A DNA stretch of 53,629 bases, filler included, from Stramenopiles sp. TOSAG23-6 (Eukaryota), in the NCBI GenBank assembly GCA_900128565.1. It is 2 parts of 2 records of this genome, joined end to end, with 100 filler letters (N's around TTAATTAATTAA, not from the genome) between each part and the next. Parts side by side here need not be neighbours in the genome. Positions count along the whole stretch, not along the records: positions 26,891 to 53,629 come from LT635985.1; 1 more part is not named here. One strand, given 5' to 3'. This document shows, piece by piece, positions 1 to 53,629 of the stretch (position 1 is its first letter; each line of letters opens with the position of its first letter). The notes under the pieces are model-generated. The model was not told where the DNA came from. It saw only the letters and a program-made list of their open reading frames with translations, and did not search any database. A program made the translations under genes and the position numbers.

Positions 1-553
1 TTTCAGCATCATCATCAGTGACCATTTCACCACCCGAATCAGAATCAGAACTTGAGTTTGCTTTAGATTTTGTTTTCTTTTTTTTCTTTGATGTTTTCTT
101 TTTGATATATTTACGCTTGACGCGTTTTTCTTTGTCACCATCTTCATACAATATATCGAATGTACCATCACTATGTGTACCGACAACTTTACCTTTGTAG
201 AACTTCGATTTCCCACCATATCTTGCTTCAATCTTATCACCCTCTTCAATTTCAGCATCATCATCAGTGACCATTTCACCACCCGAATCAGAATCAGAAC
301 TTGAGTTTGCTTTAGATTTTGTTTTCTTTTTTTTCTTTGATGTTTTCTTTTTGATATATTTACGCTTGACGCGTTTTTCTTTGTCACCATCTTCATACAA
401 TATATCGAATGTACCATCACTATGTGTACCGACAACTTTACCTTTGTAGAACTTCGATTTCCCACCATATCTTGCTTCAATCTTATCACCCTCTTCAATT
501 TCAGCATCATCATCAGTGACCATTTCACCACCCGAATCAGAATCAGAACTTGA
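1..553. repeat. 249-bp coding tandem repeat (about 2.2 copies visible)
   Basis: 1-249 matches 250-498, with a partial third copy; shadow ORFs recur at 18/267/516. Confidence 0.95.
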
Positions 554-1717: not shown

Positions 1718-2949
1718 ATGGGAATATGTTCAGCAAAACAAACAGACCCTAACTTGAACTCTGAGTTTGCGGATCCTGGAGGATACAAGTTGAGAAAGAA
1801 ATATACTGTGTCTGAAAATCTAATTGGAAAAGGCCACTATGCGTTTGTCTACAAAGGAACTGAGAACGCTTCGGGAAAACCTGTTGCTATAAAAGTTATT
1901 CAGAAAGCAAAGAGTAGTATCGAAAGGTTATTTATTGAAATTGATATTATGAGAAAGCTCGGCTCTCATCCAAACCTCGTGGAGTTGTATGACGTATACG
2001 ATGATTCAGAAAGTAATGAATTAAGTTTGGTTATGGAGTATCTTGACGGTGGTGAGCTCTTTGAATACCTCGAGCAGAACGGAAACTACGCCGAAAAGGA
2101 TGCTGCGAAACTTGCGTATCATATTGCGCAAGGGCTTAAATATTTACACGACCGAAATATTGTTCACAGGGATTTGAAGCCAGAGAATTTGCTTCTAAAA
2201 GAAGATGCAGTTTACTCCGAAGTGAAACTTGCCGATTTTGGCCTCGCAAAGATTTTGAAAAAGGATACAAAGTTGCTCGATACCATATGTGGTACATGGG
2301 CATATGCAGCCCCTGAAGTAAAACAACAAGAGATAAGTGGAAAGTCTGGATACACAGCAAAAGTAGATAACTGGAGCTTTGGGGTAATAGTATTCGTTCT
2401 TATTAGTGTACGTTTTATTTTTTTTTTAATTTCGAATTTATTTTTCGTACGAAATTTTGTACCTAACGAATTTTTTTTTTAAATAATTTTTCACAATACG
2501 TGGGTATCATCCATTTGATCCATCTGGAGTAACGAGCGACGAAGATATGCAGGAAGCTATCAACGCCTGTAAATTTGATTATAATGATCCCATATGGATC
2601 CCAGTTTCAAAGGAAGGAAAAGATCTTATTTCAGCATGTGTGTTTTATTTTTTTTCAAATTCTATTTTTTTTTCATACGAAATTTTGTACCTAACATTTT
2701 TTTTTAATTTTTTTTGAAATATTTTTCCAAAATACATGTGTGAAACTTGATCCGAGTAGTAGACTGTCTACTGAAGAAATATTGGAACATCCTTGGTTTA
2801 AAAAAATGCTTGGCGATGAACTTACTCTTGATAAAGATCATCACACCAGAAGTCATTCTTTAGAAAAATTGAAGGAAACAAATCAAAAACGCAAACAATT
2901 CAAAGCTGATGTCAACACTGACATGGTTGGTGTAAATGTCAAATCCTAG
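1718..2949 (+). CDS. CaMK-family Ser/Thr kinase, 3 exons (1718-2407, 2502-2637, 2738-2949), about 345 aa
   Basis: GKGHYA, VAIK, HRDLKPEN, DFG and APE motifs. Splicing restores VLISGYHPFD and DLISACVKLDPSSR. MGIC N-terminus suggests acylation. Confidence 0.93.
2408..2501 (+). mobile_element. Introner-like intron, GT...GT
   Basis: agt|GTACGTTTT...GTACCTAAC...CACAATACGT|ggg; the exon ends in GT (2-bp duplication). Confidence 0.9.
2638..2737 (+). mobile_element. Introner-like intron, GT...AT
   Basis: cat|GTGTGTTTT...GTACCTAAC...CCAAAATACAT|gtg. Confidence 0.9.
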
Positions 2950-3146: not shown

Positions 3147-4131
3147 TTTTTGTTTTCACATTTCTTTTTTTTGTTTTCACGATTTTTTGTATATTCATGT
3201 TTTGACAGAAAGTATTTTGCCGCCGTATCAATTTTCACGTCATTTTCTATTTTAGAATCTTTGAAATAATTCTCTTCTCCAGGTCGGAGGCCATGTTGTT
3301 TCAATAATTCAACGATATGTTGTATTGTCGTACTTTCAATACCTCCAGTATTTACATTCCTACATGTATTTTGGAAAAATATTTGAAAAAAAAAACGTTA
3401 GGTACAAAATGTCGTACGAAAAAAAAATAGATTTTGAAAAAAAAATAAAACATACATAGAGTACAAGAATATTCTTGAAACTCTTTTAAAGTAAAACGAG
3501 CATTATAGAACTTTCCATACTTTTCAGGGTTAGCTTTTCTAGAACCTTTTATTCCAATTACGAAAGTTTCAATGAATTTATCACATTTTCTTCCGACTTT
3601 GAAATGCTTGAGATTTTTCATTCGATCAAGGAAAGAATATATACCAGAATGTATGCTAAGAATCATCATATTAAGTTCGTGTTCCGATATAGACACTGGT
3701 ATTGTTTTTCGAGGTTGCTCGTCATCTTGGTCTTGAATGTCATTTTGGTCAAATTTAAAAAGTTCAAAAAGTGCTGCAAGTTTTTCGTTTATTGTGGCGT
3801 CACAGAAAACGTAATATCCTGCAAATAAAGCATGCGCATCAATCCCATGAATCTCATTTTTTATATTACCGTTGCTACATAAAAAAAGTGAAAATATATA
3901 TGTTTTAAATGCATCAGATGGTTTTGAAGTCGGTGGACGCCCTGGAATTTCTCTAAAAAGTAAATCTAAACCATTAAAGCCGTCAAGCTCTAGGATTAGA
4001 GAGCCGTGTAAATGTTTTTTCCAACGCATCTCTAGTATTTTAACTTCTTTTAAAGTGCAACAAGGAGGTGAAAATGACCAATCTTCTTCATCAAATACAT
4101 GAGGTCGTGGTATTGATTGTGCGCCGCCCAT
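3131..4131 (-). CDS. Putative myristoylated protein with degenerate EF-hand (calcineurin-B/recoverin-like), 2 exons, about 302 aa
   Basis: MGGAQS start; EKLAALFELF...ISEHELNMMI. Removing 3364-3455 gives an open frame to TAA at 3131. Confidence 0.65.
3364..3455 (-). mobile_element. Introner-like intron, GT...AT
   Basis: ctat|GTATGTTTT...GTACCTAAC...CCAAAATACAT|gtag. Confidence 0.9.
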
Positions 4132-6522: not shown

Positions 6523-6614
6523 GTATGTTTTATTCTTTTTCAAATTCGAATTTTTTTTCGTACGAAATTTTGTACCTAACGAATTTTTTTTCAAAATATT
6601 TTTCCACAATACAT
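6523..6614 (+). mobile_element. Introner-like intron, GT...AT, joining two different genes
   Basis: cat|GTATGTTTT...CACAATACAT|caa; left flank is RRP5, right flank is CPT2. Confidence 0.85.
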
Positions 6615-7425
6615 CAACTGCAGCATTTAAACATGGAAGGACTGAAACAATTCGATCTTTGACATGTAAAAGTCAATTCATGTGTAAAATATTTGATTAT
6701 CCTCCACGTTCTATTCATACAAAATATACAAAATATACAAAATCAAATGTTTCTGACAATTTTGAAAAAAATCTTCGAAATATTCAAAATGATATTGATA
6801 TTATAAAAACAATGGGATTAGCTACAAGGGCAGCATATGTCTCAAACGCTGCAGATCACCATAGTACAATTACACGCCAAGCCCTCATGGGTCAAGGGGC
6901 TGATCGTCATCTTTTTGCCTTACGACAACTTTCTTTACAGAAAAATAATAACAAAATTCAAAATTGTCCTGATATTTTTAAAAATGTTGCATGGAATAAA
7001 ATGAATACTATAATTCTTTCAACATCAACAATAAGTAGTGATTATTTACGTGGTGGAGGTTTTGGACCAGTCAATCCTGACTGTTTTGCTATTGGTTATG
7101 GTGTACGATCATATGGAAGTTTGGTTTCTATTATGAGTTTTGGTCGTGTATGTTTTATACGAATTTCTAATTTAAGTTTTTTTTTTTTTGGTTTCATACG
7201 AAATTTCGTACCTAACAAATTTGAGTTTTTTTTTTTGAAATATTTTTCACAATACGTGATTCGTCGGCTTTTGCTCGATCGTGTAAAAAAGCTGCCAATG
7301 ACATAATGGAATCTGTAGAGGCATTAAACATGGTAGAGAATGCAAAGGGCTTAAAGACTTTGAAAGAAAAGAAATTGTTTCGTAAAAGTTTAGTAAATGA
7401 AAGTATGAAAACTATGAATTTATAG
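6615..7425 (+). CDS. CPT2: Carnitine O-palmitoyltransferase 2-like, C-terminal fragment (exons 6615-7147, 7258-7425)
   Basis: STAAFKHGRTETIR, MGQGADRHLFAL, ILSTS, GGFGPVNPDCFAIGY. Confidence 0.85.
7148..7257 (+). mobile_element. Introner-like intron, GT...GT
   Basis: cgt|GTATGTTTT...CACAATACGT|gat; restores SFGRDSSAFARSC. Confidence 0.88.
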
Positions 7426-26790: not shown

Positions 26791-26890
26791 NNNNNNNNNN
26801 NNNNNNNNNNNNNNNNNNNNNNNNNNNNNNNNNNTTAATTAATTAANNNNNNNNNNNNNNNNNNNNNNNNNNNNNNNNNNNNNNNNNNNN
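26791..26890. other. Artificial contig-join linker
   Basis: N-run + TTAATTAATTAA (stops in all six frames) + N-run. Confidence 0.97.
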
Positions 26891-29241
26891 TGTTTTTTTT
26901 GTTTTTTTTGTTTTTTTTGTTTTTTTTGTTTTTTTTGTTTTTTTTGTTTTTGGTGGTAATTGTCTTGGATCAAAAAGAGTCGATACAGAAGAAGCACTAG
27001 AAATCCAGGCATCAATATATTTTCTTCGTACAACAACTTCCCATGATTCATTATCAAAAATACTCAGTAGGGGAGGAAGTTTGTATTTTTTCAAAAATTT
27101 CAATAATTTGTGAATAAATTTTTGAAATGTATTTGTCGATAACCCTAACCCTAGTATATTTGATTCATCGGATGGCTCATATATTTGTAAAACAATATCC
27201 TGCGTTTGACCCCAAATTTCACATTCCATACTTTTTCCTTCATATTGATTTTGTATCACTATTTTATCAACAATTCCAAAATTTATACGATCAAATACTT
27301 GCATTGGTGTATCATCGCCATCATACCAATGACCTGTAATAAATATCTCTTTTTTACTAATATTTAATGCAAGAAATTCAGCCATATTATAGCCATCCTT
27401 TTCATGCGGATGATAACATGTATTGTGAAAAAATATTTCTTTTGTCTAAAAGCATCATTGCGTTGTTTGTTAGGTACAAAATTTTCTAATACAAAAAAAT
27501 ACAAATTTCAAATTTCAATGTTTTTTAACCCTTAAAAAAATGAATGGGGAGTGAAATTTGAAAAGCGATTCCAACTGTAGGTGAAACGGGTAAAACGTTC
27601 GATGATTGGGAAATATTATTTCTGGATAATGACGATGTTGTGTAGTATACCACCAACTATATGTCATCAAAGGAACAGATAAAACAGAAACATCAACACG
27701 AAATCCTTCACATTCTTGTACGTATTTTGTTGCATTGTGTACAATATCTTCCATTGATAAAAAAANACTTTTAGGTGGTAAATTTTCAAGTATATTTCTC
27801 CCATATTCTGCAATATACTTTTGATTCGAAAAATCCCTCGATTTATAATTTATAATACACTGATACACAACGAGAGATACTGCAATAAGTAATGGACAAT
27901 AATAAATATTCCCAAATTTGAAAAGTTTACTTTGTTTTGATGATACCAAAGTGTAATCAAAAACATGTTGAGTGACATTAAAAAATCCAACACCTGAGAA
28001 ATAAAAAACAACAATATTACACTGTTGCCAAAATCTTTTGTATACACCTTGTAATAATGGATTTTCAGTATCCATATTTGCTAAATAACTCATAACAAAT
28101 AAGTACAGAAGAGTCGATATACAAAGTATAACTCCACTTTTCTTTTTTTTACATGTACAAAATGTACCAATGATAGCCAATACTATTGAAATTATTCCAC
28201 TTTCTTTTGAATGAAGAGTATAAAAATAGTCACGAAGTCGCAACCACACATATATATTATCATCTATATCTCCATTTGTATCAGTTAATTGAAATGTACC
28301 ATACTCCATGCGTAAAAAATGTGTCAAAAATCCTGAAAGAGTTGTTTGGTCACCCCAACCATCTTTTCGTTTTAAATTAGAAGCATACACTAAATATAGA
28401 TATGGGAGAAACCCACAGAAAGAACTTACTGTTAGCCATAGAACATGTATTGTAAAAAAAAAAAATCGAAATTTGTTAGGTACAAAATTTCGTACGAAAA
28501 AAAAAACAATTGAAATTCATAATGAAAACGTACAATACGTATCTTTGAACGAGTAGGGTTAGGGATTGAAAATAGACAGTACAAAACCCAAATTGCTATA
28601 GGTATAACAAGAAAAATTATGGTATGCTGATTTGATAATCCTAAACCACACAGCAGTGCACCAATGCAAGCATCACTCAGTAATGTAGTTGAGTTAATGT
28701 TCATTCGCTTTTTTTCATTTGTATTTTTTTGTTGTAGTAGAAAAAAACTAAAGTGACTTTCAAAAGAAAGAAACTGAAGTAAAATAAAAACAACAAACAA
28801 ATTATTCAAAGCAAAAACTTCACCCTGAACAGCATATAACCAAATTGTAGGAGAAAATGCGAATATACCAGCAGCATATATACCACTTGCAATACAAAAT
28901 AAAAATGTTTTCTTTTTCAAATGGACCAAAGCAGGATCAGAAACGCTACTAAAAGTATAAAACATTGAAATGAAAAGTCCTCCGGCAGCAAGAGAGTCAC
29001 ACAAAGCCGAAAACATATTTATTCTAAAAGCAGGACTTCCACCAAGCAAAGGTAAGCGATAAAACATAGCCGCAAGTATCGTCCAAAGCGGATAACCAGG
29101 AGGATGTGCTGACCCGAGATTACACGCTGCTGTCATCAACTCTCCACTATCACCACCAGGAACACTTGAATATATAGTATTCAAATAGATTTTGAAAACT
29201 ATTGCTATAAAACATAGTGCAATACTAAGCACTTTAATCAT
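26891..29241 (-). CDS. TMEM260: TMEM260/DUF2723 protein O-mannosyltransferase-like, 3 exons (29241-28534, 28444-27601, 27417-gap)
   Basis: GGDSGEL, AHPPGYPL, GEVFALNN, NQHT, WGDQ...HFLRMEYGTF, RFWQQ. Confidence 0.92.
27418..27600 (-). mobile_element. Introner-like intron, GA...AT
   Basis: catc|GAACGTTTT...TTTTGTACCTAAC...CACAATACAT|gttat; gives FPNHRYHP in frame. Confidence 0.75.
28445..28533 (-). mobile_element. Introner-like intron, GT...AT
   Basis: att|GTACGTTTT...TACAATACAT|gtt; in frame. Confidence 0.88.
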
Positions 29242-31053: not shown

Positions 31054-33145
31054 TTAATTAAAAGAGTCAGTGCGTAAATGATAACTAGTTGCACGAGCAA
31101 ACATTGGAAAATTTTCAAAATCACAACTTTTGCTTGATTCAACAGATTCTCTCCGACTATTACCCACAGAAATAGACTGATGACTCTTTCCATAATTTGT
31201 ATTATTATTACTATGTACAGCAGTATATTCATTATTAATACCCTCAATATTCGTATCGACAGCATTCGCATCATTTGCTTGGATTCTTTCCAAGGCTTTT
31301 TCTGAAAGTTCCGTCCAATCACTACGCAACATTATAACTGTACAAAGAATAGACGATAGTGTCAACCCAACAGCAACTCCACACCAGAGACCACCAATGC
31401 CAAGATCAAACACTTTCCAAAAAGCTAATAAAATACCTAAAGGAATCCCAAGGATCCAATACACACAAAACATGTATTGTGAAAAATAGTTTTTTTTAGT
31501 TAAAATATCGTTAGGTACGGCATGTACTGAGAAAATAAAATGTAGGTAAAAATTAATTTTGAAACGTACATTACTTTTGCAGCTATTGTTTGTTTTCCAA
31601 TGGCTCTTAACTGACCTTGTGCAACACCATTTACTGTATCCACTATTTGATACAATGCTAACACAATCAACCATTTCTCGGTATCTCTAATATATTTCTC
31701 TGTAGGATGAGAGAGAAAAAGAAGTGGAATATTGTGTCTAAGTAGGAACATTCCTAAACAAATTAAGAGACCCATCACAGAAGCAGCAAATAATGATGCT
31801 TTTGAAGCAGATTCTGCGTTTCTTATTTTGCCTTCACCCAAATCATTTCCAATGACAATAGAACAACCAGTGCTCAACGGTAGAGTAAATGCCACGTATG
31901 TAAATGCTGTACTATTCATTAAAGCAGCATTCACTGCGAGAGCAGTGGTTGGATCAGGTAACATTGCAGCTAAAAGATTCAATAACTCAAAAGCCCATGT
32001 ATTGTGAAAAAATATTTTTTTTTTAGGTTTTAAAAAAATTCGTTAGGTACAAAATTTTGTACGAAACAAAATGTAGGTAAACAATTCAATTTTGAAAACA
32101 TACACCATTCTAAACCTATACTCAAAATTGCAGGACAGCCATATTGGAGTATTTGATATAAACCTGACAAATTCATAATTTCCACCCATATAGATCGTCG
32201 TGGTATACATGGTTTATGAAGATCATAATAAGTTATATACAATATAGAAAGAATGACACGTAATATAGATGTAATTGACTGAACAACTGCACACCACTCA
32301 AATCCAAGGTTACTCCCCCAATTCCCTAATATTGAATCCAACGAACCATTCAATAATACAAGTGTGAGTCCAATATTAAAAACTAAAGAAAACATCGCTA
32401 TCCACATAAAAGGTTTTACTACACTACGAGCTGACATTGTCTTTCTAATGAGTTCATATAATATAGTGAACGGTACACCAACTAAAAGACAACGGCAATA
32501 TTTTCCAGCTAAATGGCTTATATGAGCAGGTACGTGAACAAATAAAAGTACATTACCTGAGAAATATCCAAATATAGTTGTTGGAATCATAAGAAGGGAC
32601 GCTACCAATGAAGCCCTCAAAAAATATACACCAAGCAAGTCAAAGCGATTTGCCCCTGCTGCTTGAGTACTTAGTGTATCCAGGGCAGCTATTAGACCAA
32701 GTAGTAATGATACGCCAAACACATTATTAAACATTGTACCTAGAGAAGCAGCTGCAACAAAATCTTTGCCTTGATATTGACCCACCATGGCTACACCTGC
32801 AACATTTGGAAGAAACTCAAACACAGATGTCATCATTATTGGGAAGTACAAAACTGCTATACGTTTTAGTTGCACTTTCCAACGTGTATCACCCTCATCA
32901 GCACCACCAATTTCATTATAATGTAAAGTATGTTGAATGCTAGAATCGTCTGATAAACTAGGTAATCTATGCGAATGTCGAATGCTAGAAACACCAGCTA
33001 AAGTGGGTGGTCTTGGTATTAAGGGTGAGTCTGGAATTCTTGACCTATGTAATTGGTTTGATCCCCTTCGATTTCTAGAAGAGTGAGGACTTAACTGCTT
33101 CATCATTGGACCTAATACTTCCCCTGATACAGTCCAAGACGCCAT
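31054..33145 (-). CDS. MATE family efflux transporter, 3 exons (33145-32104, 31996-31570, 31471-31054), about 628 aa
   Basis: ALDTLSTQAAGA, LEWWAFE after splicing, IGNDLGEG, QGQLRAIGKQ, GIGGLWCG. Confidence 0.93.
31472..31569 (-). mobile_element. Introner-like intron, GT...AT
   Basis: aat|GTACGTTT...GTACCTAAC...CACAATACAT|gtt. Confidence 0.88.
31997..32103 (-). mobile_element. Introner-like intron, GT...AT
   Basis: tggt|GTATGTTTT...CACAATACAT|gggct; restores LEWWAFE. Confidence 0.92.
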
Positions 33146-37188: not shown

Positions 37189-40100
37189 TTATTTATTTAG
37201 ACACAAAGCTGCTTGTTTCCGTATACATGGATTGGCATTTCTTAATACACACTTAGTTAGTATATTTTTGTCACCGGCATGTTTTAATATTGATTGTGCA
37301 GTTGAAATCACTTTGTTGGATGGATCATTCAAAGACCTTAAAACTATAGCAAGTACAATTTTCTTTTTTAATACTGGGATAGTAGGGTTAGGGCTACTTC
37401 TTGACATTTTGTGTAATTTGTATAAAACTTGTAAAGAAGTACATCGTATATCTACGTTATCATCAAGTGTTAAACGTCTTAATAATGTCACAATTCGAGA
37501 TAGTAATGTATTGCAAGTTTTATCGATTTCTAAAGTACTTAATACAGAAATAAACGAAACTCGAAGTTTTGAAGACTTTGACTTTGCTGCTATATCTATA
37601 ACCCATGAAACACCTTTGGACCCCATTTGCATTAGTGCGGATGCAATAATACGCGATGGAACTTTTGATGATACTAAAGTAGTTTGAATTCTAGTGGTAG
37701 AATCAATTTTATATTCTTGTTCTAGTAATATTCTCTCACTGCTCATCTTGTCATCAATAGTATTGTCAAGTAACCAATCCTCTTTAGGAAATGATTTATA
37801 GATACAATGAAGCAAATGTGGAATAGCAATTTGATGTCCCCATAAACCTAACACAGCAACTGTAGACGTTCTCACTAACCAAAAATTATCAGCAAGGGAT
37901 TCTAACAGACATAAAACAATTTTTTCAGAAAGAAGAGTATTTGTTTTTACTTGTTTCTCCGTCGTGTTTTTATTATTACCATTTATGTTACATTGATCAT
38001 ATAAGTCAACTGTTTGTCTAATAACTGGAGAACCAAATGCAGTCACCGTTGCATTTCGGATGGATTGCTCCTTATCACAAAGAGTGACAAAGAATGCTTG
38101 GATCACTTGAATGAGTTTAGGTAAAGGCAGTTGTATAGTACTTAATGTAGCTATTGATGCAATACAAACATCTTTATCTAAATCTTGAAGAGAGAATAAT
38201 AGTGCATCAATAATTTTACAATCCATTGAACTGTCACAAAGCCATCCAATCGATGATATTATTTGACGTTTTGGATTTTTACTGGTTTTCGTAGCATTAC
38301 TATAATCTCTTTTGATTGCATCATCATCAATATCATCATCAATGTACATTCTCTCAATAGGTATAATATTTGTGTAATCAAAACTTTGTTTTTCAAATAT
38401 TCTCTGAAAAGAATTTAATATTTCTTGTGGATCTAAACGGAGAGTATAATGATAAAGTTCTGAATGTTGTACGTTCCAGTACGTTTTTAAAGGACCAAAG
38501 TTAAAATCTTGCCCAAACGAATTTCTAGTCAATTCATATCTAAATTCAGAAATTGAAAAAACTTCAATCTTTTGTAGTTCTTGTATTTTTTGTATTTCTC
38601 CACGGCCTTTTACATAAATACCATTTGGAAGAATATTATTATCTTTATATAAATTGCTAATTGTAGATGATGTATATGATTTAGTGTCATCTACGCCATT
38701 TATACTTTTGCGAGTTTTAGGATATTTAGAACAAAGTTTAAGTTCTACTATTTGCTTTTGTTTTTCGATTCCATAATTTTTGTTTTTTTGCTTCTTTTGT
38801 TTTCTTTCATAATCATTATCCACGAAAATGTTTATATAAGATCGTCGTTTTGTATGAAAGTCTATACCTAAAGCCCAACAACAAATGCGTTTCACTAAAG
38901 AGGTTGTTTCAGTATTACACATATGATATACTAAAATATTTACCCCAGAGCATGGGAGAGTACGCAAAGCCCATCCAGCTGCAATCTTACATTTATGGCG
39001 TATACTACTTTTAGGGTTCTCTAATAAAAAACGTTCTAAGATCCCCCCAACTCTAATTACAATTTGTGCATACTGTTTATCAAAATCTGTGGCAGTCATA
39101 GATTTTCTCGTTTCTGTAGTGGAAATTGTGCAAAATACGTATCCTAGAGATATTATCATAGATAATTTTGTCTTTGAACAAATTACAATATCCATCTGAG
39201 AACAAAGTAAAGGTATAATACATAACTGTTGAATTTGAGGCAAATTGCAGAGGTGTGTTAATATCGCCTTATCAAGTTCTAATGTGCCATCTTTTATGAC
39301 CAACAAACATTCTTGTATTCCTAGAGTTCCTAGAGCAATTAATACATTTAAAATTTCACTTCTTTGTCTTACTAATAATTTTTTTTCGTGACTTATCTGG
39401 GGCAGAGGGTTTTTATATTTTTCAGCTGAATTTTGTTTAACATTTGTGGAATTTGTCGAACTTTGCTTAATTTCCTCCAAAACAATGTGAAAACATCGCT
39501 TTATTTCAGGTAGTAATTTGATACATTTTTCGCCTAACCTTGTGATGAACTTGAACAAAAGTGTATTAAATTCTATACTATTTTTTTTATACTCTAGAAG
39601 AAGTTTTGATTTACAAAGTGGCAAAAACTCACGATTAAAAAAGTCATTATTTTGCCTATCATTTACTAATTGCTCGACGTATTGACCATTTGTCAGTTCA
39701 AAGCATAATTCAGATAATGCGTATATGCAATCAAAACCTTTTACCATTGTACTGTTTGCTATTTGATCTAGTAATGACCGAACTCGTTTTAATGTATTTT
39801 GGAAAAATATTTAAAAAAAAAATCGTTAGGTACAAAATTTCGTACGAAAATAAATTCGATTTTTTGTTTAAAAAAAAAATAAAACATACATGCCACACAG
39901 TATGGTAACTTATGTTTTGCATCTTTATTTATATCTTTCATTGATTCATCTTTTGAAGCATTCAAAGTGACATACTTTAAATAAGGTGAACTAGAAACTA
40001 ATGTTGATGGTGCAGTATAGTCATTGAGAACGTCTTTCATTAATGGTGCAGTAGAATCACCGAGAACGTCTTTAATTTTAAACGGAAACTCTTCAAGAGC

Positions 40101-41104: not shown

Positions 41105-42713
41105 ATGCTTGGACCCGTTGTTCAACCTTCTTTAGTTGCGTCAATGTCACCAAAATATGAAGGAGGACAAATATCTTTAGTCAAGTCTGATCGAGTACAA
41201 CCAGTAGTAAATGACTCAACAATAGGTGTAAATACTCCAAGTAAAAAACCAGTAGTAAATGACTCAACAATAGGTGTAAATACTCCAAGTAAAAAGTTGG
41301 GTATTCATACAATACCGTTAGAAACCAACAGCGCATTTCATTCGATTAAACCAGGAATTTCAGTATTTGTTAGAGGCAAGAATATGCCAACACCAATTCG
41401 TAAAAAACGTAGAAAAGCAGAGCGACTTTTACACAGACCTAGACCAACTACTACTAGTCATCAAAATAATAGTTTACACAGACCAAGACCAACTACTAGT
41501 CATCCTACCCCGGCCGTTTATTCTAACTCTAGTAGTCATTTTACAAGACCAAAGACCATACATGTCTCACATCGATCTTTACAAAACAAACAATACATAG
41601 GTGGAAAAAATCTTACATATCAAAATAATACAAGAATGATTAATAGAGACAAACAGTTTATAGTCACGATTCAAGGGGATTCTATATTTAACTTTAATCC
41701 TACAACAACGAGTAGAGAGAATACTAGTACTACTGATGTCTTTACAACACGAAATTATATAGATCAAAAATTATCAATGAGAAATGAAGGTGGATTATCA
41801 ATGAGAAATGAAGGTGGATTATCAATGAGAAATGTAGGTGGATTATCAATGAGAAATGAAGGTGGATTATCAATTAGAAATGAAGGTGGATTAAATCGAC
41901 CTCGACGTAGTATTGATCGTAAAAGTATACAAAAAAAAAGAAAAAATCAAAACAAAATGACAAAAAATAAAAGTAATACACAAAATACACAAAATACACA
42001 AAAAAAAGATAAAATTCCTGGTTGGAAAAAAGTTAGAGAATGTAGTAAACGTTCAACAAGAAGCAATCCTCTGGGAAGTAAGGCAAGCAGACTTTTACAA
42101 TCATTATATGGTAAAAAAACAAAATGTAGTTCGAAATCTTTTTCAAAAGAATCTTTCAATCATTATTATAAAAATCATGAAAAGACAAAAATAAATTTTC
42201 AAAAATGGGATTTTCCAAAATACACTACTCTTAACGTAGAATTGAAAGAAGCACTTCATCGACGAAATCATGTGCAAGTTATAAAACTTCGACGCCAAAT
42301 TGCGGAACTTTATTCTGGAGGCCTTCGAAAACCGACACAAAAAAGAATTGCAAAACCTAAAAAAGATTCAAAACAATTACAGAAAATAAGTTCAGTACGT
42401 TTTTTTTTTCTTTTTTTTTTTGTTTCTCAATTATTATTATTATTATTTTATAGTACATTTTGTGCCTCTAACAAATGTGAAAAAAAAAAAAAAAAAATAT
42501 ATATTGTTTTCAAAATATCATTGTTTACGACTACGTTTGTGCTCTGTGCAAGATCGTGTCACTTGTGAAAAATGGTGGTCCAATGAATCGAGACCAAGAC
42601 ATATTAGTAAAAAGAATGATAAACACCGTGAAATGAATACATTTGGTACTTCAAATCATACAATGGATTCATCATATAAAGCTTTTAAAATATGTATATC
42701 TGACTTCAAATGA
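41105..42713 (+). CDS. Hypothetical basic low-complexity protein, 2 exons (41105-42394, 42522-42713)
   Basis: Long ORF with LSMRNEGG repeats; the frame continues after a diverged intron. Confidence 0.6.
42395..42521 (+). mobile_element. Diverged introner-like intron, GT...AT
   Basis: tca|GTACGTTTT...CCTCTAAC...CAAAATATCAT|tgt. Confidence 0.7.
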
Positions 42714-42848: not shown

Positions 42849-44592
42849 TTACTCTTCAACAACGTGTCCTTTATACTTCATTGTTGTTTCATCAAAGCCT
42901 ATAGTTGGAAACTGACGACAAAAATCAGCAACTTCGAGCTGTAAAGATTTCAGTTTACTATCATATTTTCCCTCTGAAAGAGAGTCTTTAAATGCTTTTA
43001 AAGTTTTTTTTCCCGTACTGGCAATCACGTCATCTTGTATTTCTTTCGCAAGACAAACCCCTTTATCAACAAAATGTGCAATCATTGTAAAATCTTTCTT
43101 CACTAAACCACGTGATGTCATCGTTGGACTTCCTAAACGTAATCCAGATGGTTTTAATGCACTTTTATCTGTAGGAACAGTATTCTTATTTATTTTGAAA
43201 AAATATTTCAATAAAAAATTTTGAAAATTTGTTAGGTACAAAATTTACTATGAAAAAAAATAAAAAATCGATTTTTTTTTTTTCGGTAAAAAAAAAAAAA
43301 TAAAACATACATTTGTTGATATATTACAACGTTCCAATACAAATTCACAGCGTGCTCCATCAACTCCGCGAGAGGAGAGAACATCAAGAAGTAATAAATG
43401 ATTATCAGTTCCACCCGAAACCATCGAATATCCAACATCTTCAAAAGTATGTATTTTGGAAAAATATTTCAAAAAAAAAAAAACTAAAATTTGTTAGGTA
43501 CGAAATTTCGTACGAAAAAAAATCGAAATTGAAAAAAAAAAAGAAACATACATCAGCCATAGTTTTTGAATTGGAAATAACTTCTTCCATATATCCTTTA
43601 AATTCAGGTGAAGCAGCTTGTTTCAAGGCCGTCGCGAGTGCAGTGATAGTATGATTATGAGGTCCTCCTTGACATCCAGGAAAAACAGAAAAATTGATCG
43701 GATCTTCCAAATTATAAAAGATTTCTTTTCCTTTTTTTGTAGTCGATCTCAAACCTTTACGATAAAATATCATGGCACCACGAGGACCACGCAATGTCTT
43801 GTGTGTCGTTGTAGTGACAATATCAGCATGATCAAAAGGACTTGGTGTAACACCACCAGCAACCAATCCGCTTATGTGAGCCATGTCAGCTAAAAGATAT
43901 GCACCAACACTATCAGCAATCTCTCTCATACGAGGATAATCATAATTTCGAGAATACGCACTTGCACCAGCAATAAGCAATTTTGGACGGATTCTCTCTG
44001 CCAAAGCAGCACAAGAGTCGTAATCAATTCTTCCTGTTTTCACATCCAACTGATATCCGAAACTTTCAAAGTATATTGAAGTTGCAGATATTTTCTTCGT
44101 TGGAGTTTGATACCCATGGGATAAATGTCCACCATGAGGCAAATCAAGACCAAGTATGCGATCATGAGGCTTTAAAATTGCAGTATATACGTGAAAGTTT
44201 GCCGGAGAACCAGAAAGTGCCTGTACATTGACACCCCAGTCGTTTGGATCAAGTCTGAATGCTTCTAGTGCACGTTTTTGACACAATAACTCGGATTGAT
44301 CGATATACTCATTCCCTCCATAGTAGCGTGCATTTGGATACCCTTCTGAGTATTTATTTGACATTACCGAACCAAGAGCATCATATACAGATTGAGACGT
44401 CAAGTTTTCCGAAGCAATTAGACAGATACTGTTCCTCTGTCTATTTTTTTCTTTTTCAATAATGTCGCATACCTCAGGATCAGTCTCAGAAAGCGGAGCA
44501 TTCATAACACTAACCCAGTGTGGAACTGTAGAAAATGCCCGACTGCGAGCAACTACGGATATTTGGCGACGCCATACCGATATTAAAGACAT
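42849..44592 (-). CDS. SHMT: Serine hydroxymethyltransferase, probably mitochondrial, 3 exons (44592-43552, 43448-43311, 43187-42849), about 505 aa
   Basis: [41 protein letters not shown] after splicing, GLRLGSP; Arg/Ser-rich presequence. Confidence 0.97.
43188..43310 (-). mobile_element. Introner-like intron, GT...AT
   Basis: aat|GTATGTTTT...CAAAATAAAT|aag; restores the SHMT NKN motif. Confidence 0.92.
43449..43551 (-). mobile_element. Introner-like intron, GT...AT
   Basis: gat|GTATGTTT...CCAAAATACAT|act. Confidence 0.92.
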
Positions 44593-44848: not shown

Positions 44849-47800
44849 TTAATTACGACGCATTTGCTCCCTAACCAAGGCAAGCATTTTTTCTTCTGTA
44901 TTGACTTCTAAATTTCCAATATATTTTTTTGATTTTTGTTTTACTCTTTTTATGTTACTAAAGATATCATGTACCTTTTTAACAAACAATTTTGTACTTT
45001 CTGCAAATGCAAGTACATCTCTTGAAAAGTTTAGAACATGTACGGCTGGTAGTTCATTTTGTATAGCTAATTGATACTTTAGTTCAACTGCATCTAAATA
45101 TTTTTGACTTTTACATACTTTCACTGCAGCTTGTGTGACAAAATGTTTTGCTGAGGCATTGAGGAGCATATATTTATCATTATTCGTTCGAAAAGTTTTT
45201 TCTTCAATATTTTGCCATACACGATTGATCTCTTCAAATATATTTCCCTCTAAATTTGGTTGTGTTATTTTCATTTTTTCTTTATTTTCATTAGAGTTAG
45301 GGTTCTCATTATTTTCATGTAGAGAAATATTCTTTTCAAATAAATCTCTTGGTACATAATTCCATCCACCTATTTTAGCAAATGTATACCCTGTTTCATG
45401 AATATTTTCCCTGATTAAAGACAGAATTTCACTAGATTCTTTCAAATATTTCACGCGATGATCAAGTCTTATTCCATATAATGATTTCATTTTTACGAAA
45501 AATGTGTTTACTTTTTCCAAATAAATACTTTTAATATGTACAATATAGCGTAGTCTATAAAAAAAGCGACGCCAAGCCGTTTGAATTATAATGGAAGAAT
45601 GATTTCTTTTTTCATGTAATTCTTTCAACCTTCTCTCTTCGGGGGGTACGATGATTTGTTGATACAGTGATCTAGTAATAAAACCTCTAATATGTGTTTG
45701 TGTTTTATGGATCCAATATTTTATCAATAATTCAGATTTCAATAATTCATCACCTATTCCTAACTGTTGTGCCAATTGTCGTTTTGATATGAAATCATTT
45801 ATAGCTGACTTATCCGTTCCATGTGTTGGAAAATATATGTCAAATTTGATTTTTTTGTTAGGTATGAAATTTAGTATGAAAAACACTATAGGTGAAAAAT
45901 TTATAATGAAAACGTACATGTTTTGTTCGATCTTTCATCTTTTTTTTCCATCGCAAAACTAAAATACTTTGTGCTGCTATAAATATTTGGAACGAATTTG
46001 AAATTAATCGCATACGACTCCAATTAAGTATACAATTTAAACTACACCATCTAAGCCATTGATCAATTGAATGTAACGTTGTAGCTTTGCCAAATAATTT
46101 TGTTGACCCTAAAGACCAAAAAATGTCGTTTTTGCCTAAATGAGAAACTTTATTTGATGGAAGTGCATGAGCACATACCGCACTGACACCTTTACGAGGC
46201 ATTGAGTCTTTTGCTATGGGTGGATCCATAAGGGCATGTATACTTTTTGGTACAATTACATCATTCCATAGACTAGAATAGCTCATTCTAAATGGAAAAT
46301 TTCGTTTTTTAATTTCACATACTTTAATCATTCCAGTATACAACAATTGTCTGTACACTGTTGAATGGTTAAAACTACACAAACCATCAATTGGGCGATA
46401 GTGTATTTTATTTGGATTAATACATCGGATGAAATGTGGATTTGTTGTACGTAATGTAGAAGACAATGTCGATATGGTTTTTAATGTTTTTCCTGCGAGA
46501 GTATTTTTGTCATCATTATATATTTCATTAAATATAGTTACAAGCAAAGGTATTTTTGAGGTCTTCATTATCGATTTTATTTGAGTCAGATTTGTATCAT
46601 TATTTTGACATAAGAAGTTGGTTGCATTATACTCAATTTTACCAACGTAATGAGTAATACAAAATGTATTGCCATACTTGGCATGTGTTGAAAACATTGC
46701 GGATGCTTTTTGTATCGTAGAGTTTGTTGTATGTACATTTCCGATTTTACCAGATTTTGTAGAATTTGTATACGAATTTTTCATTTCCTGTACAAAAGCT
46801 TTACCCATGTTGTTTTTACCCATATTATCATGAAAATTATATATACTCTTTTCTTTGATACGTGGTAAAATACCTTGGAATTTTGTACAATTTTTGGATA
46901 ATAAATTTTGACAAGGTAAAGTATCCAAATCTTCTAATGTATCCATAGGCAATTCAATACATTCCTGTTGAAATACACTTACTTCAGATTGAAACACGAA
47001 ATCATCCAATATACCTTGAAGTTTTTCATTTGCATAGTTTATACATAATTCATAGAGAGTATTTTTTGGTAAAGATTGAAACCCAAATAAATCTAAAACA
47101 CCAATAAAAGAATCACTTTCTTCATTTGTTTGTAATGCAGTATTACAAACATTTTTGACTAACCAGGAGTAAATACGCTTATATATCTCTTTTGATATTG
47201 AATTACGACGGCATTCGGCTGTATCAGTAGACTGTATTGGCATTTTAGCGAATGATTTACCTGGAAGTACAATCGTATCATTTAGTAGCAATGTTGTATA
47301 CACGTCCCTACTTAGTCCTAATAAATCAGCAACTTCATTAGCTATATTTTGGTTTACAATGGCACAACTACTCATACTATTATCAGTATCATTACAATCA
47401 TAAAATTGTATATTTTGGTTTTTTAAAATACTTGTCAGAAGTTTCCATAAAGATATGCACGTTGATGCTGAAACACCAAGTAGTTCAAGTGAAGCCTGTA
47501 TTGTGAAAAAGTATTATTTCTCTTCTACACAAAATATTAGATATGAAATATATTGTTTTTTTCAGAAAAAAAAAAAAAAAAATTCAATTTCAAAATTTAA
47601 AAAAAAAAGAAACATACCCGAACGCCAGACATTTTTGGATCTTTTCTAGAAAGTGGATTATTCATACGATTTATATCATATTCTTCACCAACACCATGAC
47701 CAATGAATGTGGAACCACCATGAGTAAGTTGTGAATAATCTTCACAAGTACCTAAGTGAAATTCATCACCTAAAGTAAAATCATCTTTGTTTTGTGCTCT

Positions 47801-48927
47801 TAAAAAATGATAAAAAATATGAAAACATCGTTCACCCAGCGCATAGTTGCATGTATTTTGGAAAAATATTTCAAAAAATTGTTAGGTACAAAATTTCGTA
47901 TGAAAAAAATTTCGATTTTTTTGTAAAAAAAAAAAATAGATAAAAAATTGAAAAAAAAAAACTAAAATGTACATATTCGTGTCACATCTAAAAAATAATG
48001 TTGGACAAATGCACCAACAATACAACCTTTTTTAAATAAAAGTTTCGTGAAAAGGCCAACACACGAAGCATTATCATTTTTGTTTGTTTTGGCATGTCCA
48101 AATGCTTCAAGGAGTGGCGAAATTCCACAAATTTTCTCTATAATTTTTGTTTGAGAATTTCTAACAGATCTGTCAAGACTTTTATTTGAAATTTTTACCA
48201 AATGATGAATTAAAAGATCATTGATAGTTGTCTTTCCAGAACCAGATTCCCCAGAGAGTACACAACTCTGATTATTCACGTTGCCATTTGTTCCGTATAA
48301 ATTTCTATATATCGTTTTTACTTTTTTATAAAAGTAGTTGATTCGAAGTTTTGAATGTTTTGGGTCATGATGAAGTGTTCGAGTATCCAACAAACTCATT
48401 TGAGGATTTAAACAAATAAGAATGTCACCAACACTTGTATAGGGTTGGTAATCTTCGACGAAGCGACGACCTAAAAGTCGCAGAAGACTAACGTTGCCAA
48501 AGCCATTTACTGTAGAAATATCATCAGGAATCATTTCAATGGGCAAGTCGTGAGAGTCATCATACGGACAAACCTCATCTAATGAAAATATAAAAGTATC
48601 ATTATGTTTTTGTTTTGATATTTGTATTGTACATGTATTATCATTATTGTTAGCAGATAACAAATATCCAACAGCAAACAACTCTGTACACGTTTTCACC
48701 TCAGGACCTTTGATGCAGGGACCTGGGCATTTGCCACGCTCTTGATACTCTTTAAGTTTAAGTTTCTCCTCATTATTATTTCCATTTTGTGGAAATCCAA
48801 TTGTTTTACTACTGAAATTTATACGATCTAGAAACTTAGTTCGATATGGATCGTCTCTGACAACATCTGCAGCAGAATACCAAGAACCTTTCTTGTCAAT
48901 ACCAGTGGGATAATATACTTTTCTCAT
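44849..48927 (-). CDS. Divergent myosin (motor + IQ), 4 exons (48927-47973, 47850-47618, 47495-45918, 45820-44849), about 1245 aa
   Basis: GESGSGKT, LEAFGHAKT, ERCFHIFY, LCINYANEKLQ, PHFIRCINPN, IQTAWRR. Confidence 0.92.
45821..45917 (-). mobile_element. Introner-like intron, GT...AT
   Basis: cat|GTACGTTTT...TACCTAAC...CCAACACAT|gga. Confidence 0.87.
47496..47617 (-). mobile_element. Introner-like intron, canonical GT...AG
   Basis: cgg|GTATGTTT...CATATCTAAT...CACAATACAG|gct. Confidence 0.88.
47851..47972 (-). mobile_element. Introner-like intron, GT...AT
   Basis: atat|GTACATTTT...CCAAAATACAT|gca; restores RICNYALGERCFHIFY. Confidence 0.9.
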
Positions 48928-51387: not shown

Positions 51388-51844
51388 GAAGGATCGTGGT
51401 TGTAGTGGTTACGCATGGAGAAGTCATGTTTAAGGATTTGGTCATTGTGATACAATTAAATTACTGTAGCTGTTTTGAGTTTTCTGAAGTTCGAACAAGA
51501 CAGAGAGCAAGGAGGAGGTGCGCATCATGTTTTTTAGTACACCGCGCGACCATTCATTCGATACCCGGTACCTTATAGTAAACTGACTTCACAATTATTC
51601 TTGTCATACTTAAATGATTAAATCCTCTTACTTTTCGTTTATTCAAGACAAGAAGACAAAATATTTTATAATCGCTTATAATAGGAGGAATAAATATGAC
51701 TTCGCTTTGGTACGACTTTTTGTACTTTTAGTACCTTAAGAAAATTTTAATCCAGTTGTAAGCCCTAATAGTAGTCTATTGCAATTCTACTATTCTTTGT
51801 ATACTCTTTGTATAATTTTTGTACTGATAACTTGATAACTTTGA

Positions 51845-52801
51845 TCATTCATGTTTTTCATTTTCTTTCCCATTGTGTTTTTTCTTATAAAAATAATACA
51901 TTCCACCTAAAATCATTAAGGTCATTATACCTAATGGAATGAGTGATGATTCATGTGGTACAATCAGTGAATATGGATCAGGACTATTTGTAAGTGTTAT
52001 GTATTTTGGAAAAATATTTCAAAAAAAAATTTTGAAAAATTGTTAGGTACAAATTTTACTATGAAAAAAAAAAAAAAAAAATTCAATTTTTTTTGTAAAA
52101 AAAAAAAAAAAAAAAATTCAATTTTTTTTTTAAAAAAAAAAAAAAAAAAAACGTACATAATTTCAGTAAATATTGGATCATCTAACATCTGTTGTTCCCA
52201 GATCAATTTTGTTGCTACCAATGGTTCTGCATAACACCAATTTACACCTCGCCAAAATTTACCTCCAAGAGCCCAATATTCTTGAACACCAATTGTTAAA
52301 TTATATCCAAGTATTTTGAAAAAATATTTAAAAAAGAAAAACCCTAAAATTTGTTAGGTACAACATTTTTATAAAAAAAATTTCGATTTTTTTGTTTAAA
52401 AAAAAAAATAAAACATACAATTAAATAAGGACTTTTGATATATCTATTTAATTCACAATGAATTAAAGTATCATCGGTTGAAGTTGATCTTTTTCCAAAA
52501 GCAAAACTATGGTCTTTGGAAAAATATTTCAAAAAAAATTCTAAAAAAATTTGTTAGGTACAAAATTTCGTATGAAAATAAATTCGATTTTTTTTTTACC
52601 GAAAAAAAAAAAAATAAAACATACATAACCAAATAAATTTAATCTTTCAGGATGACTTCGGATTCCACCAGTATAAGCAGGAAGATCTATTGGAACATCA
52701 GTATTACATATATTGTGAAACAGTTTGGAACGTTACATTGAATGATGAATTTCATTTTTTTTTTTTTTTTTTTTTTTTTTGGAAAAAAAATTTGTTTTAA
52801 A

Positions 52802-52832
<31 letters not shown>

Positions 52833-53629
52833 GAAATTTATGATGAAAACATACTCTTAACTTTACAACGCATCACAATTGAATTTCTAAAATAAAATGA
52901 TGTCCTAGAAGCATCACAGCATTGTAAACACCAACCAATATCTAAACCAGCTGGATTCTTTGTACTTAATGATGTAAATGAAAGAATATTAAAAAAATTT
53001 CAAATATTTTGTTAGGTACAAAATTTTCTACCAAAAAAAAAAAAAAATCAAAATTCATGATGAAAAAAACATAAACGTTGATGTCCAATGATAACCTTTG
53101 CCATCAAAGGGATTCCCGCCATTTTCATCTGCACGTGTACAATCAAGTTGACCGGGTAACCCATCATTATCAGTACTAGATAAATCATACATGTATTTTG
53201 GAAAAATATTTGAAAAAAAAATTTTGAAAATTTGTTAGGTACAAAATTACGTACGAAAAAAAATTTAGACTAAAAATTGAAAAAAAAATAAATCATACAT
53301 GGCACAAAAAGCTGGTTCCGGATCGTTTTGGTTGATATTACGCCTGCGTGGTCTAAATGAATACGCATATACTTTGTGAAAATATTTTAACTTTTTTTTT
53401 GTTTAGTATCTTAGGTACAAAATTTCATACCAAAAAAAAATATAGTTTGTGAAAATATTTTAATTTTTTTTTAGTATCTTAGGTACAAAATTTCGTACCA
53501 AAAAAAAAATTCATAATAAAAATGTACATCACACTGTGGATTATATTGACAAGCTAATTCACACCTCCGAGCACATGTATTTTGGAAAAATATTTCAAAA
53601 TTTACCAAAAAAAAAAAAATTGTTAGGTA
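51845..53629 (-). CDS. 3' part of a Cys-rich single-pass membrane protein, at least 8 short exons
   Basis: Exons 53574-53528, 53366-53299, 53190-53075, 52971-52855, 52707-52625, 52508-52419, 52308-52157 and 51998-51845 chain with matching phases. C-terminal TM segment; CELACQYNPQCDAYSF is PAN/apple-like. Confidence 0.8.
51999..52156 (-). mobile_element. Introner-like intron, GT...AT
   Basis: ttat|GTACGTTTT...CCAAAATACAT|aac. Confidence 0.88.
52309..52418 (-). mobile_element. Introner-like intron, GT...TT
   Basis: att|GTATGTTTT...CAAAATACTT|gga; TT duplicated. Confidence 0.85.
52509..52624 (-). mobile_element. Introner-like intron, GT...AT
   Basis: tat|GTATGTTTT...CCAAAGACCAT|agt. Confidence 0.87.
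52708..52854 (-). mobile_element. Diverged introner-like intron, GT...AT
   Basis: aaga|GTATGTTTT...TGTAAC...CACAATATAT|gta. Confidence 0.78.
52972..53074 (-). mobile_element. Introner-like intron, TT...AT (or GT...AC if shifted 2 nt)
   Basis: acgt|TTATGTTTT...GTACCTAAC...CATTTACAT|cat. Confidence 0.75.
53191..53298 (-). mobile_element. Introner-like intron, GT...AT
   Basis: ccat|GTATGATTT...CCAAAATACAT|gtatg. Confidence 0.87.
53367..53527 (-). mobile_element. Introner-like intron, GT...AT, with duplicated 3' module
   Basis: gat|GTACATTTT...(GTACCTAAG...TTCACAAA) x2...TATAT|gcg. Confidence 0.8.
53575..53629 (-). mobile_element. Introner-like intron, 3' half, ends AT
   Basis: TACCTAAC...CCAAAATACAT|gtg; the 5' end is outside the window. 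Confidence 0.8.

Follow-up and report, generated by a model that had tools for sequence, protein, structure and literature searches.

Where does an intron that does not end in AG obtain its acceptor? The question arises at positions 52309..52418 (minus strand) of a 53,629-nt stretch of DNA from Stramenopiles sp. TOSAG23-6 (assembly GCA_900128565.1), the whole of which is referred to below as the window. A 110-nt intron located there begins GTATGTTTTATT, holds the branch-site-like motif GTACCTAACAAATTT at 52361..52347 with the branch A 45 nt from the 3' end, finishes AAAATACTT and joins open frames of 45 and 103 codons. Its first two bases are GT and its last two are TT. The same dinucleotide closes the upstream exon, so that a direct repeat is formed by TT at 52419..52420 (last two bases of the upstream exon) and TT at 52309..52310 (last two bases of the intron), the second copy being the acceptor. 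An earlier, sequence-only reading had proposed that such an acceptor is supplied by the 2-bp target-site duplication (TSD) of an element with terminal inverted repeats (TIRs). Our analysis covers this one 53.6-kb window, in which 19 copies of the intron were usable for statistics. They uphold the view of the acceptor dinucleotide as the second copy of a 2-nt target repeat, with a match that is locus-specific and goes beyond an AT preference.

A family of short introns with non-AG ends

Exact removal of the focal intron yields ...NRYIKSPYLI|GYNLTIGVQEY..., a junction that is gap-free against both P0122 (524 aa, 74% identity) and P0121 (201 aa, 58% identity). These two proteins are relatives found with the downstream exon of the focal gene; the homologue search found no same-species protein for it. 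Sliding the intron borders from -2 to +1 leaves the mRNA unchanged, and in no register does the intron end in AG. The AG found 10 nt past the branch A is not the productive acceptor; its use would add 35 bases and break the frame.

The focal intron is one member of a multi-copy family, and the existence of this family, with its non-AG ends and flank-matching dinucleotide, is confirmed as a real observation. About 23 copies of ~90–160 nt sit in unrelated genes and end in AT, GT or TT, with AG occurring once. Each copy is laid out in the same way, with a GTAYGT start, the branch motif TACCTAAC and a finish of ...CA(A/C)AATAC plus 2 nt. Within the window, the branch motif occurs 15 times against 0.36 expected and the 5' motif 14 times against 1.53 expected. 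A search with a family profile built from 7 copies returned 23 matches (E up to 0.013), which correspond to 22 loci because one intron has an internal tandem duplication, and the strand of each locus is that of its host gene. Two further degenerate members were spotted by eye (52854..52708 and 42395..~42521), bringing the similar copies at intron positions of unrelated genes to 22 loci and 2 degenerate members. The host genes encode a CAMK-type kinase, a CPT2-like acyltransferase, a MATE transporter, a HEAT-repeat protein, SHMT, a myosin, a TMEM260-like protein and the focal membrane protein.

Alignment of 18 copies revealed four common blocks. The first, GTAYGTTTT(ATTTTTTTTT), is followed by a variable A/T stretch; the third reads TTTTC(G/A)TACGAAATTT(T/C)GTACCTAAC; and the last consists of a T-run, then AAATATTTTT(C/T)CA(A/C)AATAC and two bases. 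The core consensus can thus be written as GTAYGTTTT..., a variable A/T stretch, ...TTTCGTACGAAATTTTGTACCTAAC, a T-run and ...ATATTTTTCCA(A/C)AATAC. Identity to the nearest partner copy is 85–92%, and an older subgroup averages 62–75%. The perfect palindrome that the sequence-only reading had placed before the branch site, TTTCGTACGAAA, occurs in perfect form in 5 copies, and another 8 have it with a single mismatch; it is missing from the focal copy. An Rfam scan of the window gave 0 matches.

The window is gene-dense, with a base composition of ~33–35% G+C. The nearest named relatives of the kinase are EukProt entries, one of them named GSMAST32... (70% identity), with oomycete and labyrinthulid proteins among its more distant matches; these relatives point to a stramenopile, probably of an uncultured marine lineage. 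A seawater metagenome run contains half of the words sampled from the last 10 kb of the window. A metagenome scan for further copies returned 13 loci, 12 of which are chance matches. The remaining one, L009:666-774 (minus strand; 41 bits; flank ACAT, end ACAT), is a family copy on an unrelated metagenome contig of 3.2 kb, which shows that the family is not limited to the source assembly. The 3' motif gave 0 matches in either the genome-contig or the viral-contig collection searched.

The two-nucleotide match is specific to each locus

The last two bases of the upstream exon equal the last two bases of the intron in 16 of the 21 copies measured, or in 16 of 23 with two extra copies, which is the figure that the sequence-only reading had given. 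Its statements that the odd acceptors GT (2501), GT (7257) and TT (52309) each equal their own flank, and that mismatched copies all end in AT or AG, were likewise reproduced. For the statistics we retained 19 frame-consistent copies and left out 6523–6614 (chimeric), 27502 (5'-truncated, without an in-frame GT donor), and 53076 and 42395 (both with putative borders). The 19 flanks are AT in 12 copies, GT in three, TT in two, and GG and GA in one each, and the ends are AT in 15, GT in two, and TT and AG in one each. Flank and end agree in 15 of 19 copies, the maximum that these counts permit. When the ends were permuted among the 19 copies in 200,000 shuffles, the mean number of matches was 9.9 and 15 or more were reached with P = 0.0006; comparison of within-locus with shuffled matches is the criterion applied to introner TSDs in passages of PMC9860276. 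All three odd ends fell on matching flanks in 0.2% of shuffles (P = 0.002). The data thus support a TSD-like, locus-specific flank identity that exceeds both the cross-copy consensus and what an AT preference alone would give, albeit in a small sample.

By position, the match extends to 18 of 19 copies at -1, including the sole G/G pair, formed by the AG copy with its GG flank, and to 15 of 19 at -2 (P = 0.007). Positions -3, -4 and -5 match in 7, 5 and 5 copies; because the match drops beyond -2, the repeat is exactly 2 nt long. The four mismatches (TT/AT, GT/AT, GG/AG and GA/AT, given as flank/end) all have A at intron position -2. A comparison of profile scores with repeat lengths showed that the 13 best-scoring copies all match and that mismatches are confined to diverged copies. 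This pattern fits a duplication at insertion followed by a drift of position -2 towards A.

Exact removal at non-AG borders

If the ends assigned above are real, removal at exactly these borders should restore the encoded proteins. Exact excision is supported beyond the reading frame, by a protein match or by colinearity with homologues, in 10 copies that include all three odd acceptors (2501, 7257 and 52309); in the other nine, the restored frame alone indicates that the copies leave the mRNA as introns. In the kinase gene, taking out 2408–2501 (GT...GT) and 2638–2737 (GT...AT) gives a model identical to P0001 at 344 of 345 residues; without splicing, the frame ends in a stop at residue 255. 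P0001, 345 aa long, is encoded by a complete reading frame of 1038 nt on a 1088-nt contig from another data set. This contig looks transcript-like; should it instead be an allele that lacks the introns, the evidence would carry the same weight.

On the solved chain 1eji_A the three SHMT exons cover ..334, 335..379 and 380.., without gain or loss of a residue, and this abutment fixes the borders of copies 43551–43449 and 43310–43188, both of which end in AT. Removal of 7148–7257 from the CPT2-like gene creates the junction ...MSFGR|DSSAF..., which is gap-free in 12 of 12 aligned homologues (e.g. ...MSYGR|DSQGF...); for the exon after 7257 a relative of solved structure was sought and none was found. 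Five junctions of the focal gene, those of the copies starting at 53527, 53298, 52624, 52418 and 52156, are colinear with P0122, and the last three of them also with P0121. For copy 32103 of the MATE gene, the support comes from the frame, from the upstream exon, which ends in ..LEW aligned to residue 253 of 5xjj_A, and from a stop codon in the alternative register: moving the borders 2 nt upstream, to an ..AC end, introduces an in-frame TGA. The middle MATE exon matched NorM chains only.

The distance from the branch A to the cut is 31–46 nt across copies. In four validated copies (7148, 43551, 52418 and 52624) an AG located 10–13 nt past the branch A is bypassed, and since nearer AGs are passed over, AG is not the acceptor signal. 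In 18 of 19 copies the intron ends in T. The GT, GT and TT ends all follow an intact AATAC, and the three validated copies with a decayed ATAC (ATAA, GACC and GTAT in 43310, 52624 and 53527, respectively) all end in AT; the AATAC block and the terminal AT may therefore back each other up. We infer that the acceptor is picked by context and not by AG. The earlier suggestion of seamless splicing by a host tolerant of NT acceptors holds as far as removal is exact at AT, GT and TT, while "NT tolerance" describes the ends without offering a mechanism.

Origin of the repeat

We consider it probable that the family is a mobile introner with its own donor and branch site, which takes its acceptor from a 2-bp target duplication produced by a DNA-level cut with an AT preference. 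The unit would consist of the core and one copy of the 2-nt insertion-site repeat, usually AT. The element would bring its own donor (GTAYGT) and branch site (TACCTAAC), and the 3' cut would fall just after the second copy of the dinucleotide, at the observed distance of 31–46 nt past the branch A. The removed piece would then comprise the element and one copy of the repeat, and the mRNA would regain its pre-insertion sequence whether the repeat is AT, GT, TT or, once, AG. The repeat itself would be a TSD left by a staggered 2-bp DNA cut that favours AT (NT), of the kind produced by ISL2EU-type transposases; position -2 may have drifted towards A after insertion, and the 3' cut may be guided by the pyrimidine tract of the element and its CA(A/C)AATAC context rather than by AG. 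Only tentatively do we put forward a more specific version, in which an AG-independent acceptor is set 2 bases past the pyrimidine tract and CA(A/C)AATAC and, in addition, the target is chosen or repaired by its likeness to the 5' end of the element.

A number of findings weigh against a clean duplication by a DNA transposon. With AT making up most flanks and most ends, no more than three or four loci are informative, and the chimeric copy 6523–6614 still shows CAT/CAT, so an AT/AT match arises without duplication. Two copies carry longer repeats, of 14 nt (53298–53191) and 8 nt (2638–2737) against 2–5 nt otherwise, which a fixed, clean 2-bp staggered cut does not predict. In both, the single base that deviates from the 5' consensus of the family equals the downstream exon (A at +6 in the former and G at +3 in the latter), and the downstream stretches are real coding sequence, as judged by P0122 and P0001, respectively. 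Each variant is unique among the 19 copies, and the probability that both pair with their own exons by chance is about 1/19 x 1/18. Two origins could account for the long repeats: an insertion beside sequences that resemble the end of the element itself, as is known for some bacterial insertion sequences, or a joint at which the 5' end of the element annealed with the target. Borders also deserve caution: in 9 of 19 copies they come from frames alone (36 to 866 open codons per side), and some of these copies have an in-frame AG 9–27 nt downstream as a possible acceptor.

Further points on the same side concern the hallmarks of a transposon. The terminal inverted repeat consists only of GTAT/ATAC, then three T:A pairs past a 1-nt bulge; it reaches 6 nt, the minimum for a TIR transposon or miniature inverted-repeat transposable element (MITE) and the threshold used in passages of PMC9860276, only if the AT duplication is counted. 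GTAC-type donors occur in the 18-copy alignment without a compensating change at the other end, and RNAalifold on these 18 copies gave 0 consensus pairs, hence no conserved hairpin and no extended end complementarity of the kind that marks hairpin-type introns such as the Amoebophrya elements and the euglenid nonconventional introns. Among the 33 long open reading frames (ORFs) of the window no transposase families were found, and Pfam identified in them neither an ISL2EU-type DDE transposase (THAP) nor a YqaJ-type ORF; the window likewise holds no long element with the family's 5' motif. All copies are sense and genic, and the 9.8 kb (18%) outside ORFs of at least 100 codons holds only the truncated 27502 copy. 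The TIR element of the sequence-only reading thus reduces to four inverted-complementary terminal bases and three more past the bulge, with no consensus pairing; its ISL2EU/Harbinger-type MITE stays hypothetical, with no transposase among the ORFs scanned, and a search of the window for long elements with the same termini found none. Taken as a whole, that interpretation is partly supported.

These same observations bear on a spread through RNA, which we judge unlikely. Excised intron RNA would re-enter transcripts or DNA at AT|G sites, by reverse splicing or by target-primed or microhomology copying, so that the mobile unit would be the intron itself and the flank identity would reflect site preference and microhomology at the joint, with no transposase cut. 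The repeated unit indeed coincides exactly with the spliced unit, and there is neither a convincing TIR nor a hairpin. A sense and genic placement of all copies is what an RNA route would predict likewise (22 of 22 profile loci are sense, and the 9.8 kb outside long ORFs are free of complete copies), yet selection alone clears antisense genic copies where 82% of the DNA is long ORF. The main argument for RNA or microhomology is annealing of the 5' end to the target, as annealing to a look-alike target would leave 8- and 14-nt repeats with a 5' variant base equal to the downstream exon. Reverse splicing has also been proposed for fungal introners without TSDs and TIRs in passages of PMC9860276. 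However, reverse splicing makes no duplication, yet the match is locus-specific (P = 0.0006 and 0.002) and of fixed length, and no reverse transcriptase or poly-A trace was seen in the window. An explanation with no duplication at all appears improbable to us. Here AT|GT...AT|G would be what the host selects at its splice junctions, with AT in place of the AG of the "protosplice" pattern AG|GT...AG|G, as suggested by AT in 12 of 19 flanks and 15 of 19 ends, by CAT/CAT in the chimeric copy 6523 and by the terminal AT kept in the validated ATAC-decayed copies 43310, 52624 and 53527. G is the first base of the downstream exon in 14 of 19 copies and the mirror position -3 is C in only 6 of 19, an asymmetry that favours a splicing signal over a symmetric cut. 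Such a consensus does not account for GT, GT and TT ends and the sole G-ending copy each lying on a matching flank, and the one non-family intron found in the window is GT-AG with a GT flank.

U12-type introns have the donor RTATCCTT and the branch site TCCTTAAC close to the 3' end. That the family belongs to them, either in an AT-AC register 2 nt upstream (ATGTATG...ATAC) or as a rare GT-AT class, is very improbable. The AT...AC register gives the same mRNA for AT/AT copies, and the family branch motif ACCTAAC, which we take to resemble loosely the U12 branch consensus, was counted in favour of this class. Nevertheless, the donor is GTAYGTTTT and not RTATCCTT, the branch A lies 31–46 nt from the end, much further than the U12 distance, copy 32103 has an in-frame TGA in the ..AC register, and the GT/GT and TT/TT copies would begin with GT or TT, then GTA. 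The AT-AC register and U12-type introns were accordingly rejected on donor, branch distance and register; GT-AT as such is listed among rare splice-site classes in PMC1557818. We give almost no credence to an artefact, that is, to assembly or amplification errors or pseudogenes with nothing spliced at these borders. One join across a copy does link two unrelated genes, and the window contains N runs and appears to derive from a small assembly, but P0001, derived from an independent contig, matches the spliced kinase model bar one residue, the housekeeping genes (SHMT and the CPT2-like gene) need exactly these removals for colinearity, and a further copy occurs on the unrelated metagenome contig L009. 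Three other modes of insertion were tried and rejected: Tc1/mariner would require a TA duplication, and the flank is TA in 0 of 19 copies; a helitron-like A^T insertion conflicts with the base before the final T, which co-varies with the flank; and a 1-bp duplication conflicts with the match at position -2 in 15 of 19 copies (P = 0.007).

Comparison with known introners and transposons

The mobile introner with a duplicated acceptor, which we favour, follows the principle of carrying the donor and co-opting the acceptor. This principle is already published; as far as the passages cited below go, the novelty lies in a 2-bp, non-AG duplication that gives AT, GT and TT acceptors. Introners of Micromonas pusilla and Aureococcus anophagefferens were reportedly described by Huff, Zilberman and Roy in 2016. 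They resemble the present family in being non-autonomous, in creating introns at scale and in drawing one splice site from the duplication; according to passages of PMC7789003 they have clear TIRs, 3–9-bp TSDs and canonical splice motifs, in contrast to the 4 inverted terminal bases, 2-bp TSD and non-AG acceptors found here. The Amoebophrya introner elements (Farhat et al. 2021; passages of PMC7789003), read as MITE-like, are also repeated introns with short direct repeats at their borders and non-GT-AG ends. Their inverted repeats of 8–20 nt form a hairpin that joins the ends, their direct repeats measure 3–5 nt and both ends vary, whereas our family keeps a canonical donor and branch site, is unusual at the acceptor only and has no predicted hairpin.

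According to passages of PMC9860276 (2022), an introner may bring one splice site itself and draw the other from the duplication; a Chrysochromulina family described there, with TSDs of 4 bp and without TIRs, brings the 5' site and co-opts the 3' one. With the introners of that paper our family shares a non-coding, multi-copy element that makes introns in unrelated genes, an internal donor, an acceptor from the duplicated target, an unchanged mRNA length and the lack of a clear TIR. It differs in its duplication, which is 2 nt long and non-AG (AT, GT, TT), while the ends published in those passages are canonical or near-canonical, and in its lineage, which is stramenopile-like with relatives among marine single-cell assemblies.

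Among transposons, ISL2EU elements (PIF/Harbinger-ISL2EU-Spy; Han et al. 2014) make 2-bp duplications that are typically AT, as given in passages of PMC4122938. The family agrees with them in its 2-bp AT-type duplication and AT-rich targets; membership needs a DDE transposase (THAP), a YqaJ-type second ORF and matching TIRs. The background on which the sequence-only reading had drawn, namely introners that take a splice site from the TSD and the AT duplications of ISL2EU, holds in the cited passages of PMC9860276 and PMC4122938. A Mariner-type introner listed in supplementary file 7 of PMC12130899 also has a 2-bp duplication, carries its donor and co-opts its acceptor ("carry 5' co-opt 3'"). 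That family is ~1.9 kb long, with 51–52-nt TIRs, a transposase trace, TA as its target and TSD, and AG acceptors (ag:4 of 4), against ~100 nt, AT and non-AG here. In the supplementary files searched of this 2025 introner survey (PMC12130899), neither "ISL2EU" (13 files) nor MAST as a lineage name is present. A search of the full-text literature, including a paper on single-cell stramenopile genomes (PMC5778133) and the text, exclusive of supplements, of a 2026 single-cell preprint, found no published description of the family or of GT-AT/GT-NT introners in marine stramenopiles.

Family copies in the focal gene

The focal gene (51840–53629, minus strand) encodes a cysteine-rich single-pass membrane protein and contains eight family introns in 1.9 kb, with exons of 47–159 nt; most genes elsewhere have none to three. 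The nearest partners of these eight copies sit in other genes, which indicates separate insertions and not local duplications. All features of this section are on the minus strand, and flank and end are given in this order. The copy at 51999..52156 (AT/AT) creates the junction ..FTEI|ITLTN.., gap-free against P0122 and P0121, and that at 52509..52624 (AT/AT), which ends AAAGACCAT, the gap-free junction ..NLFGY|SFAFGKR..; an AG two bases beyond its AT would shift the frame. The degenerate copy at 52708..52854 (GA/AT) has no CTAAC motif, and its border is plausible, not fixed. A diverged copy at 52972..53076 has candidate borders and an ACATCA repeat at 53084–53079 and 52975–52970.

The copy at 53191..53298 (AT/AT) is the one with the 14-nt direct repeat, which reaches into the 5' end of the intron. 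A downstream AG was considered as its acceptor and rejected, as its use would delete MYDLS; the downstream stretch is a real exon because CAMYDL is conserved in P0122. The copy at 53367..53527 (AT/AT; ..QCD|AYSFRPRR.., colinear with P0122) contains a ~68-nt tandem duplication and therefore two branch-like GTACCTAAG motifs. Finally, 53575..53629 holds the 3' portion of one more copy, which is truncated by the window end and finishes AAAATACAT.

Family copies in other genes

On the plus strand, the CAMK-type kinase gene holds the copies 2408..2501 (GT/GT) and 2638..2737 (AT/AT), the latter with the 8-nt direct repeat and the unusual G at +3. The CPT2-like gene holds 7148..7257 (GT/GT), at the ...MSFGR|DSSAF... 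junction. Upstream of it, the copy 6523..6614 (AT/AT) lies between two genes: in the region 4351–7422 (plus strand) an RRP5-like ORF with S1 domains meets the last ~230 residues of the CPT2-like protein, and the frames do not join. The part downstream of 6614 lacks the ~460 N-terminal residues of all homologues. In every CPT2-like homologue TYESAS precedes TAAFKHGRTETIR, and nothing upstream in the window encodes TYESAS. Copy 6523–6614 is therefore probably an assembly join across a repeated intron. The only other plus-strand member is the family-like copy 42395..42521, near the 3' end of a gene, with candidate 3' borders at 42518, 42520 or 42521.

The remaining copies are on the minus strand. 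Copy 3364..3455 (AT/AT) joins frames of 241 and 76 open codons. Between two same-strand ORFs, the 5'-truncated copy 27418..27502 has lost the first ~30 family positions; no in-frame GT donor was found for it, its status as an intron is putative, and it may be a decayed intron or part of an untranslated region. Copy 28445..28533 (TT/AT; frames of 277 and 309 codons) belongs to the older subfamily, and its frame is likewise kept in an alternative GT..AC register, which has a 4-nt ATAC repeat. The MATE gene contains 31472..31569 (AT/AT; 157 and 138 codons) and the mismatched copy 31997..32103 (GT/AT; 353 and 164 codons). Closest to the family consensus is 39792..39889 (AT/AT; 299 and 866 codons) in the HEAT-repeat gene. 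The two SHMT copies are 43188..43310 (AT/AT, ending AAAATAAAT; between ..379 and 380.. of 1eji_A) and 43449..43551 (AT/AT; between ..334 and 335..), the second of which skips an AG 10 nt past the branch A. In the myosin gene, 45821..45917 (AT/AT; 532 and 323 codons) and 47851..47972 (AT/AT; 323 and 83 codons) accompany the diverged 47496..47617 (GG/AG), the only copy with an AG acceptor and the only one with G as the last exon base. An in-frame AG that could serve as an alternative acceptor lies 9 nt downstream of copy 39792 and 12 nt downstream of copy 45821.

An ordinary 91-nt GT-AG intron outside the family is found at 21690–21780 (plus strand), in a gene to which no function was assigned; it has a GT flank and joins 420 and 298 codons. 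The host therefore also uses AG acceptors, and the oddity travels with the element.

The window has two other features of note. The telomere-like word CCCTAACCCTA was found at six sites (11633, 19688, 27143, 28554, 37383 and 49824), with both strands represented, against 0 in 100 shuffles; some sites are in coding sequence and some intergenic. Two runs of 44 N's (26791–26834 and 26847–26890), 12 bases apart, adjoin an HMG-box gene, and five single N's are present elsewhere.

Implications

The family would be a natural example of housekeeping genes whose introns, of ordinary appearance and with a donor and branch site like those of yeast, are cut after AT, GT or TT; acceptor choice, a long-standing question, could then be tested on a defined cis-element. 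The model in which transposon insertion turns a TSD into a splice site gains from it an independent lineage, the smallest non-AG duplication to date (2 bp) and an example of the outcome when the duplication is not AG. There are practical consequences as well: gene finders that demand GT-AG would leave many genes of single-cell and metagenome assemblies like this one broken or truncated, and repeated introns mislead assemblers, one such join being visible in the window. If the proposed targeting by likeness to the 5' end is true, insertion would leave longer repeats, and the first bases of the intron would be copied from the host exon. If the AG-independent acceptor is true, a mobile element would have brought with it a mode of acceptor choice that skips nearer AGs, and this would allow seamless insertion at any NT site.

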